Shown here: one piece after another, positions 7,965 to 8,185 of the stretch
Layout of the letters: each line of letters starts with the position of its first letter
How positions within the stretch are numbered: the stretch's first letter is position 1
Source: a virus
Lineage: Duplodnaviria; Heunggongvirae; Uroviricota; Caudoviricetes
Length of the DNA stretch: 11,988 nt
Virus record (IMG/VR): IMGVR_UViG_2737471855_000016
Location: 1 to 11,988 of that record
Strand: one strand, 5' to 3'
Position numbers and translations under genes: made by a program
Notes under the pieces: model-generated
Database searches by the model: none
Told to the model about the DNA's origin: nothing
What the model saw: the letters and a program-made list of their open reading frames with translations, nothing else

Positions 7965-8185
7965 TGTTCACCACTGTTCACCCTGCAATAAATGTCTTTT
8001 ATATCAGTATATTATAGGGTGAACAGTTGTTTATGAACTGTTCACCAAACTATTCACTGTTCACCTTTTTGATTCTTTATTGAGCTTTAAGGGTGAACAG
8101 TGGTGAACAGTTGGTGAATAGTTTTTGTGAAACTGTTCACCCCTTAACATTATGAATAAAAAGGGAAAATTGCAAAAGGTGAACA
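7965..8185. repeat. Iteron array / candidate replication origin: nine perfect TGTTCACC octamers in both orientations
   Basis: TGTTCACC at 7965, 7975, 8039, 8058 and 8134; GGTGAACA at 8018, 8092, 8102 and 8178; plus degenerate copies (GGTGAATA at 8113, GGTGAAG at 8186). From memory this octamer is the type I iteron bound by the P4 alpha protein at ori and crr. Confidence 0.85.

Follow-up and report, generated by a model that had tools for sequence, protein, structure and literature searches.

The Gap Downstream of the Initiator Gene Harbors an Array of 12 Octamer Sites

The sequence analyzed here comprises 11,988 nucleotides (in the following, the window) and contains a gene for a predicted replication initiator, which is followed by a short, AT-rich intergenic gap densely filled with copies of a single octamer, TGTTCACC. 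This raises the question of what function such an array fulfills and to what type of element it belongs. The original prediction had described nine perfect and several degenerate copies in both orientations within about 220 bp, interspersed with AT-rich spacers, and had taken them for an origin-like array. An exact search of the window yielded ten copies of TGTTCACC, nine of which are located within 7965-8185 (9 perfect copies per 221 bp), whereas in 200 dinucleotide-preserving shuffles of the whole window the octamer occurred 0.42 times on average, three times at most and never ten times. Three degenerate copies with one or two mismatches were found in addition and the three spacers have an A+T content of 75-77%, so that the description of the array held in each of these points. 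The degenerate copies are regarded as genuine sites because the aligned positions in related loci carry perfect or near-perfect octamers. Therefore, the array consists of 12 sites and reaches to 8193, which is 8 bases beyond the end that had been assigned to it. The coordinates of all features are listed in Table 1.

Table 1. Features of the predicted origin and of its surroundings (positions within the window; a dot denotes no strand assignment).
Feature	Position	Strand	Remarks
Replication initiator, 605 aa	6133..7950	+	Pfam D5_N, DUF5906, Pox_D5; RefSeq CDS WP_040077153.1
N-terminal module, aa 1-~135	6133..6540	+	Predicted fold beta-alpha-beta, Toprim-like, then long charged helix
Lone TGTTCACC inside the initiator gene	7377	-	Exact search
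Predicted winged-helix origin-binding domain (OBD), aa 497-593	7621..7911	+	Homologue of P4 alpha OBD
Wing codons, aa 569-584, YMKRKTKHGLRSNVTL	7837..7884	+	Proposed specificity determinant, co-varies with iteron
Intergenic gap with predicted origin	7951..8237 (287 bp)	.	66% A+T; gene 49% A+T
Perfect TGTTCACC sites	7965, 7975, 8039, 8058, 8134	+	Exact search
Perfect TGTTCACC sites	8018, 8092, 8102, 8178	-	Exact search
Degenerate site TATTCACT	8051	+	2 mismatches
Degenerate site TATTCACC	8113	-	1 mismatch
Degenerate site CCTTCACC	8186	-	2 mismatches
Left origin module	7965..8065	.	7965(+), 7975(+), AT spacer, 8018(-), 8039(+), 8051(+, degenerate), 8058(+)
Left AT-rich spacer	7983..8017 (35 bp)	.	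77% A+T; candidate unwinding region
Central spacer	8066..8091 (26 bp)	.	77% A+T; dyad center (~8079.5) and loop of the ssDNA hairpin lie here
Right origin module	8092..8193	.	8092(-), 8102(-), 8113(-, degenerate), 8134(+), AT spacer, 8178(-), 8186(-, degenerate)
Right AT-rich spacer	8142..8177 (36 bp)	.	75% A+T; candidate unwinding region; aligns with AT-rich spacers of P4 ori/crr
Small conserved ORF, 81 aa, phrog_1231	8238..8483	+	Directly past the origin; EcCICFT073 has a small ORF at the matching position
Island SSB	8480..8902	+	Pfam SSB (E 5.8e-15); TIGR00621; EcCICFT073 has an SSB at the matching position

The first site begins 14 bases past the end of the initiator gene. Within the 11.2 kb island to which the array belongs (see below), 11 of the 17 TTCACC hexamers fall in the array, and neither a second iteron cluster nor any other clustered 8-mer was found across the island. 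Since the array is the single cluster of this kind, the island would have one compact origin and no pair of separate cis-acting regions such as ori and crr of P4. DnaA boxes, IHF consensus sites, and GATC clusters were not detected in 7900-8300, and no P4 type 2 repeats occur near the array at up to one mismatch.

The Element Is an EcCICFT073-Type PICI

The window is 100% identical to a region of Escherichia coli RM10410 (NZ_CP042350), where an island is inserted between pgrR and mppA. The island is bounded by a short att core, extends from window position 1158 to 12358 (370 bp past the window), measures 11,201 bp, and includes int (at 1328) and the genes that follow it. These encode an integrase, an AlpA-like HTH protein, a Bro-N protein (frameshifted), two YlcI/YnfO proteins on the opposite strand, and an Icd-like protein, followed by small ORFs, a DUF4222 gene, the initiator gene, the gap with the array, a small ORF, the SSB gene, a ClpP-protease/major-capsid (MCP) fusion, and a 93-aa ORF. 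The element is an 11.2 kb EcCICFT073-type Gram-negative PICI and fits the layout of this group in size (~8-15 kb), integrase, AlpA-like regulator, rightward transcription, pri-rep gene, ori, capsid-related genes, and att repeats. The copy in RM10410, with its frameshifted Bro-N gene, may not be fully mobile. It had been suggested that a P4-like replicon next to a capsid gene and an SSB gene of its own makes up an unusual mosaic. This view has to be given up, as the order of int, AlpA-like HTH, pri-rep, ori, SSB, and capsid is standard in EcCICFT073-type PICIs, and the flow of primase-replicase genes among satellite families has already been published.

Two other assignments of the element were ruled out. 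A P4-like satellite at the level of the whole element was rejected since the island lacks psu, sid, delta, and epsilon: none of them is annotated there, and the ORFs searched against Pfam, NCBIfam, or PHROGs gave no match to any of them. A cf-PICI was rejected since there are no portal, terminase, or connector genes within the island limits, the protease-MCP fusion being the sole capsid gene. The 16.5 kb "phage" vB_KppS-Ant, a relative in which a TGTTCACC array occupies the corresponding place, does possess a portal, terminase, and connector set along with its capsid gene. An open frame of 650 codons at 3565-5517 was considered as a missed gene and dismissed, as it has no family hit, shows a non-protein-like composition, and lies antisense to annotated genes.

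For Gram-negative PICIs, the origin is described in Fillol-Salom et al. (2018, ISME J, PMC6092414) as the region directly 3' of the initiator gene, where iterons flank an AT-rich stretch. According to the same paper, a pri-rep-ori fragment of EcCICFT073 maintains a temperature-sensitive plasmid, for which both rep and ori are needed. The array of the window is likewise located directly 3' of the initiator gene and combines its 12 sites with three AT-rich spacers. EcCICFT073 is an island of the same size and has a matching gene order with an initiator of 584 aa, a gap of 288 bp, a small ORF, an SSB gene, capsid genes, and a homologous final ORF. Its Pri-Rep protein is just 48% identical to the window initiator, though over the full length (596 aligned residues) and including the N-terminal module, and its gap contains the same 12-site map with AT-rich spacers. 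The sites themselves differ, reading TGTCTACC/CTCTACC in EcCICFT073 and TGTTCACC in the window, and so do the wing of the OBD and the att site. In EcCICFT073 separate major capsid and head decoration genes are annotated, whereas the window island has the protease-MCP fusion. The layout summarized for SaPI Rep-ori regions of Gram-positive PICIs in PMC6092414 is also similar, in that the initiator gene is directly followed by the origin, whose iterons lie on either side of an AT-rich stretch; here, the hosts are Gram-positive and the likeness is one of described layout. Because the locus is homologous to an EcCICFT073 ori that has been shown to work experimentally, we consider the array to be the vegetative replication origin of this EcCICFT073-type PICI, with a probability of roughly 85%; an origin-like array had also been suspected in the original prediction. 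By sequence comparison, this transfer would have to span a different iteron and the limited identity of the two initiators.

The Initiator Is Predicted to Combine an SF3 Helicase With a P4-Type Origin-Binding Domain

The product of the gene upstream of the array is annotated as "DNA primase family protein." From domain comparisons it is predicted to consist of an N-terminal Toprim-like module of ~135 aa, a D5/P4-alpha-type SF3 helicase, and a C-terminal winged-helix OBD. The protein shows 50% identity to amino acids 320-776 of P4 alpha (E 7e-162), a region that comprises the SF3 helicase and the winged-helix OBD. A phmmer search against PDB matched amino acids 497-593 to residues 2-99 of chain 1ka8_A (E 2.4e-24), and the Pfam family Pox_D5 spans amino acids 501-596. 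These matches bear out the earlier proposal that the replicon is tied to the P4 family.

The N-terminal part is of a different kind. P4 alpha starts with a DnaG-type primase, whereas the window initiator lacks such a domain: no similarity of its residues 1-144 to the alpha primase domain was found, and hhalign gave the N-terminal module a probability of 0.2% of being related to the P4 primase domain. The module matched no Pfam family even at E 10, and no PDB chain in an hmmsearch sequence comparison. In the predicted fold, AG and YQAG appear to sit where Toprim domains carry their Glu and DxD motifs, and a zinc-binding region seems to be missing. It is therefore doubtful that the initiator has primase activity, and the "primase" part of the annotation is probably wrong for these initiators. 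Of the "primase/helicase gene" that had been placed next to the array, the helicase stands, whereas the gene is not one for a P4-type primase, its first ~144 residues showing no similarity to the alpha primase domain.

Both Halves of the Array Resemble the P4 ori Core

The alpha protein binds the iterons of P4. This binding is summarized in PMC2777425, and P4 ori and crr are connected with alpha in Ziegelin et al. (1993), as cited in PMC8628076; the annotation of the repeats in GenBank and the 1KA8 match would also speak for it. In the P4 GenBank record (NC_001609), TGTTCACC is annotated as "ori type 1 repeat," so that the type I iteron of P4 and the octamer of the array are the same. The P4 ori (9310-9413) contains six perfect copies, and crr ("cis required region for replication") contains a mixture of perfect copies and copies with one mismatch, which agrees with what the original prediction had stated about ori and crr. 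According to the same record, crr is located directly downstream of the alpha gene and ori 4.5 kb away.

The octamer is shared together with its arrangement. In local alignments, the right half of the array (8091-8152) matched P4 9308-9370 base for base on the direct strand with a score of 62, and the left half (7963-8086) matched the reverse complement of the P4 ori core, also with a score of 62, while shuffled controls scored 17.7 on average and 28 at maximum. Thus, the alignment to P4 ori/crr that had been proposed as a check shows colinearity with the ori core. Both cores consist of three sites, one opposed site, an AT spacer of ~35 bp, and two sites, with site spacings of 10, 11, 21, and 44 in the right module versus 10, 11, 22, and 43 in P4 ori. 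P4 ori and crr carry a spacer of equal length at the position that matches the left spacer 7983-8017; in the relatives of the window this spacer keeps its length and has diverged in sequence. As judged from these alignments, the array is an imperfect palindrome of ~235 bp in which the P4 ori core module occurs twice, in opposite orientations, with the site order (+ +) AT (-) (+ + +) in the left half and (- - -) (+) AT (- -) in the right half. There are marked differences to P4, which has one ori module, a distant crr built from two direct repeats of 120 bp each, and also type 2 repeats, whereas the window has two ori-like modules head-to-head beside the gene, and neither crr nor type 2 repeats. 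Furthermore, BLASTP revealed no homologue of P4 Cnr/ORF106 among the two small ORFs that precede the initiator gene, and no terminator matching the alpha terminator of P4 was found in a terminator scan.

It could be that the array acts like crr, that is, as an enhancer to which the initiator binds while initiation takes place at a separate origin, as in P4. The P4 crr also sits directly 3' of the alpha gene, and the right end of the array (8136-8212) aligns to crr with a score of 51, well above the shuffle maximum. However, both halves of the array fit the P4 ori core better than crr, the island contains no further cluster that could serve as the separate origin, and in EcCICFT073 the rep gene and the gap alone suffice for plasmid replication (PMC6092414). 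We therefore regard an enhancer without initiation at the array as highly improbable.

The six mirror pairs of sites all have their centers at 8078.5-8080, and the longest inverted repeat (7996-8048 with 8111-8163, 72% complementary) is centered at ~8079.5. The ungapped dyad score was also best at 8079.5 with 55 of 115 positions complementary, which is modest compared to the maximum of 51 in 200 shuffles; other centers score up to 53 because the iterons are repeated. Folded as ssDNA, 7962-8196 forms one single hairpin of -49.5 kcal/mol versus -24.5 +/- 3.4 for shuffles (z = -7.3). Such a fold, together with sub-threshold Rfam matches to long hairpin precursors, would also be expected of a structural palindrome, for instance a cruciform, a hairpin RNA, or a signal for recombination or packaging, in which the octamers are not protein-binding sites at all. 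The Rfam matches, however, are restricted to eukaryotic miRNA families far under their gathering scores (37.9 bits versus 249) and arise because the array is palindromic, and the pairing is accounted for by the opposed iterons, so that the hairpin is largely a by-product of their orientation. It further argues against a structural role that relatives conserve the octamers and not the spacers, that entire arrays switch the octamer at every site (see below), and that the cos sites of EcCICFT073 have been described elsewhere in that PICI. A purely structural function is the least credible explanation that we considered. The spacers taken on their own are complementary at 32 of 63 positions as well, versus an expected fraction of 0.318 (P = 0.0014). 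The array may hence have originated when a single module was duplicated in inverted orientation.

The array might also serve mainly in transcriptional control, either by autoregulation or by gating read-through into the SSB and capsid genes, with an origin role that is secondary or absent. Iteron-binding initiators of iteron plasmids commonly autoregulate, and no terminator-like site was found between the initiator gene and the downstream ORFs, so that transcription probably crosses the array. On the other hand, there are no plus-strand promoter-like sites in 7850-8350, where all matches to the promoter consensus are on the minus strand (3 versus 1.0 expected). In addition, 12 sites with AT-rich spacers that are colinear with a known origin core far exceed what an operator needs, and the homologous gap of EcCICFT073 is a functional origin according to PMC6092414. 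A mainly regulatory array thus appears very unlikely to us, whereas a dual role in origin function and regulation is conceivable.

Octamer Sites Are Conserved and Switch in Concert

A set of 72 related loci, numbered with the prefix L, was taken from genome contigs. Eight sequences with TGTTCACC arrays were aligned, namely the window, six genome loci from Raoultella, Kluyvera, Pluralibacter, Citrobacter, and Klebsiella, and vB_KppS-Ant. All 12 sites keep their position across these eight sequences, and in this alignment the identity to the window amounts to 93% for the octamer columns versus 61% for the other columns. This pattern suggests that the octamer sites are under selection.

Other loci carry arrays of a different octamer at the same position: TGTCTACC in L007, L011, and L012, TGTCCGCC in L014 and L015, TGTCCACC in L016, TCTCTACC in L052, and TGTGCACC in L043. 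In L011, L012, and EcCICFT073 the site map is kept, and every single site reads GTCTAC(C) rather than GTTCAC(C). Since all sites have changed in concert, they fit a protein recognition sequence and not a structural palindrome or chance repeats.

The change of the octamer is accompanied by a change in the protein. Compared to the window, the helicase core is 88-91% identical in TGTTCACC and TGTCTACC loci alike, whereas the C-terminal domain is 72-79% identical in TGTTCACC loci and 61-66% in TGTCTACC loci. Divergence within the OBD is concentrated in the wing, with helix alpha3 being nearly unchanged. The wing reads KRKTKHG-----[IL]RSNVTL in TGTTCACC loci, which resembles KRHTKQG-----IQTNLTL of P4, and KR[AK][KQ]CT[KR]GPDKGR.I.NVLL with a five-residue insertion in TGTCTACC loci; further variants, also with the five-residue insertion, occur in TGTCCGCC and TGTCCACC loci. 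The pairing of wing and iteron is not one-to-one, as EcCICFT073 and L052 have TCTACC-type sites together with a wing that lacks the insertion, and TGTCTACC-type sites are thus found with two different wing types. At the nucleotide level, a sliding comparison of L007 with the window yielded 88-96% identity over 6851-7650, 50% at 7851-7950, and ~40% across the gap. In L011, L012, L014, and L016 the identity falls from ~70% to 46-50% at a breakpoint at ~7750-7850, whereas TGTTCACC loci show no drop there. By association, these data suggest that the last ~35 codons and the iterons may be inherited, and exchanged between relatives, as a unit. The wing codons are located only ~65-115 bp upstream of the first iteron, so that wing and iterons would form one contiguous, swappable cassette.

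Viral Contigs Contain Two Replicon Layouts

Viral contigs were scanned for the site pair TGTTCACCNNTGTTCACC, which matched at least 119 contigs, and ~80 loci were analyzed. A second TGTTCACCNNTGTTCACC pair is present in 41 loci, in one of two layouts, while the 41 viral loci with a single pair were left out of the layout classes. In the first layout (21 loci), the pairs are opposed and 127 bp apart, which corresponds to the geometry of 7965/8092 in the window. Here, the array begins 18 bp past the end of the OBD match in 21/21 loci, and each of the 18 typable loci encodes the window-type N-terminal module. In the second layout (18 loci), the pairs are on the same strand and 86 bp apart, which corresponds to P4 9310/9396. 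All 15 typable loci of this class encode the P4 primase N-terminus, and in the 14 loci with an OBD match the ori is located 4.0-4.7 kb from the 3' end of the gene. From these classes it follows that the window represents the compact, gene-adjacent dyad form that is typical of PICIs, and not the split ori/crr form.

Proposed Mechanism of Initiation

For the array as a replication origin, we infer as follows how the initiator binds, where the DNA melts, how the helicase is loaded, and where the primers come from. After induction and excision, the initiator would bind to the 12 TGTTCACC-type sites via its C-terminal winged-helix domain. With a distance of mostly 10-11 bp between neighbors, the sites would lie on one face of the helix, and the two inverted six-site modules would lead to a symmetric assembly around the dyad at ~8079.5. 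Subsequently, the left and right AT-rich spacers, and possibly also the central one, would melt, and the SF3 helicase part could be loaded as hexamers that unwind the DNA in both directions. The single strands would be covered by the island SSB, which is likely an accessory of the replicon. Primers would probably be provided by a host or helper primase because the initiator has no recognizable primase domain.

A comparable organization is found in SV40 large T antigen and papillomavirus E1, which combine an origin-binding domain and an SF3 helicase in one initiator. Their origins contain dyad-symmetric sites flanked by A+T-rich DNA and are suited to head-to-head double hexamers. The likeness is one of analogy, since large T antigen and E1 have a DNA-binding fold that is unrelated to the winged helix of the window initiator, and far fewer sites than are spread over the ~230 bp of the window array. 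For P4 alpha-type proteins, we know of no demonstration of a double-hexamer assembly.

Implications for Satellite Replicons

This type of origin is already known, as it has been published and one member has been validated experimentally, and the present findings do not overturn the current understanding. What may be new is that the PICI origin is colinear in sequence with the P4 ori core, that its two modules stand head-to-head, and that wing and iterons would make up an exchange cassette. We did not find an earlier statement of these three details in the literature searched, which included the available text of PMC6092414 but not its Fig. 2a with the iteron sequences. The colinearity ties the origin of EcCICFT073-type PICIs to P4 ori at the sequence level, and the head-to-head double module may be a self-contained substitute for the pairing of ori and crr in P4.

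The data also suggest that the replicon specificity of satellites may diversify by swapping a wing-plus-iteron cassette of ~400 bp. A more far-reaching and rather tentative idea is that wing codons and iterons act as one exchangeable unit of specificity, by which PICIs and P4-like satellites would fall into different compatibility groups of replicons. Cross-talk between P4 and PICI origins is conceivable because PICIs of the window type carry the exact P4 iteron together with a P4-like wing. If this idea were true, a P4-type satellite and a window-type PICI residing in the same cell could each fire the origin of the other, titrate it, or interfere with it. Two satellite families with different helper phages would then engage in cross-talk.

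In the 40 records listed, the array match is free of annotated features. The array supplies a precise and testable origin annotation for this gap, which 684 of 5,426 complete E. coli genomes contain. In OkiPb01714 the island is inserted inside a prophage terL gene, which is an unusual location and not a prophage att site, and among the matches listed a terminase gene also lies under the match in O157, O111, and other records.

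Integration Site and Capsid Gene of the Island

In E. coli OkiPb01714, the same 11.2 kb island was found within a lambdoid prophage, where it interrupts the gene for the large terminase subunit (L076:9712-23019). In the record listing, the match likewise covers a terminase gene in O157, O111, and further entries. The core at the junction reads approximately (T)TC-TGGATG-N-AGG, and the chromosomal pgrR-mppA site of RM10410 seems to be a secondary target of a similar kind. Judged against PICIs as described, integration into a packaging gene of a prophage is unusual for a satellite.

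Coordinates of the island end and of the interrupted terminase gene
Feature	Position	Genome
Terminase large-subunit gene, N-terminal part	L076:9712-10716	OkiPb01714
Terminase large-subunit gene, C-terminal part	L076:21889-23019	OkiPb01714
Left island end	window 1158	

The lambdoid prophage in which the OkiPb01714 island resides encodes its own fusion of a ClpP protease and a major capsid protein (L076:24720-26699), to which the equivalent fusion of the island (window 9560-11449) shows 52% identity. This value fits with an island capsid gene that would be matched to the type of its helper phage. In EcCICFT073, the genes for major capsid and head decoration are separate, whereas the island in the window carries a single protease-capsid fusion.

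Apparent Modularity of the Initiator and the Probable Origin

The N-terminal module of the initiator (~115 aa, window 6133-6540), for which the proteins P0017, P0018, P0023, P0076, P0025, and P0085 were considered, is also joined to PF13481 (RepA-like AAA) helicases and additionally to a third, different continuation. Thus, it looks like a mobile module that is common to several helicase families. Its predicted fold is Toprim-like, and the catalytic acidic motifs are apparently absent.

The related protein from Enterobacter hormaechei (L012, ~790 aa) has a helicase core that is 88.6% identical to that of the window. Its N-terminus, by contrast, is long and unrelated, sharing only 22% identity with the N-terminal region of the window initiator, and the iterons are of the TGTCTACC type. 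Therefore, the N-terminus, the helicase, and the cassette of wing and adjoining iterons seem to reassort independently. In Escherichia ruysiae (L007:7806-8110), where the helicase is 88-96% identical to that of the window, the TGTCTACC array is rearranged and longer; its left module is partly absent and additional site pairs are located 210-280 bp beyond the stop codon, which suggests a recent recombination inside this origin.

A single perfect TGTTCACC copy (window 7377-7384, minus strand) lies in the helicase coding region ~590 bp upstream of the array and may have arisen by chance, as 0.42 copies are expected per window. For window 7959-8202, Rfam gave sub-threshold matches to families of miRNA precursors from plants and animals (e.g., MIR821, 37.9 bits vs. 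a gathering score of 249), which arise artefactually from the long, imperfectly palindromic sequence.

Other Genes of the Island

A 650-codon open frame on the plus strand (window 3565-5517) coincides with three small minus-strand genes in RefSeq, two of them YlcI/YnfO paralogues, and with an Icd-like plus-strand gene that lies in frame at its 3' end. No family match was found for its translation, which is rich in Cys, Ser, and Arg and contains an internal duplication mirroring the two paralogues. Though strikingly long, the frame is probably an antisense artefact. Whereas OkiPb01714 carries the Bro-N domain gene in intact form (L076:12396-12974), the annotation of RM10410 marks it as frameshifted (window 2843-3420); in RM10410, the island may have undergone partial decay.
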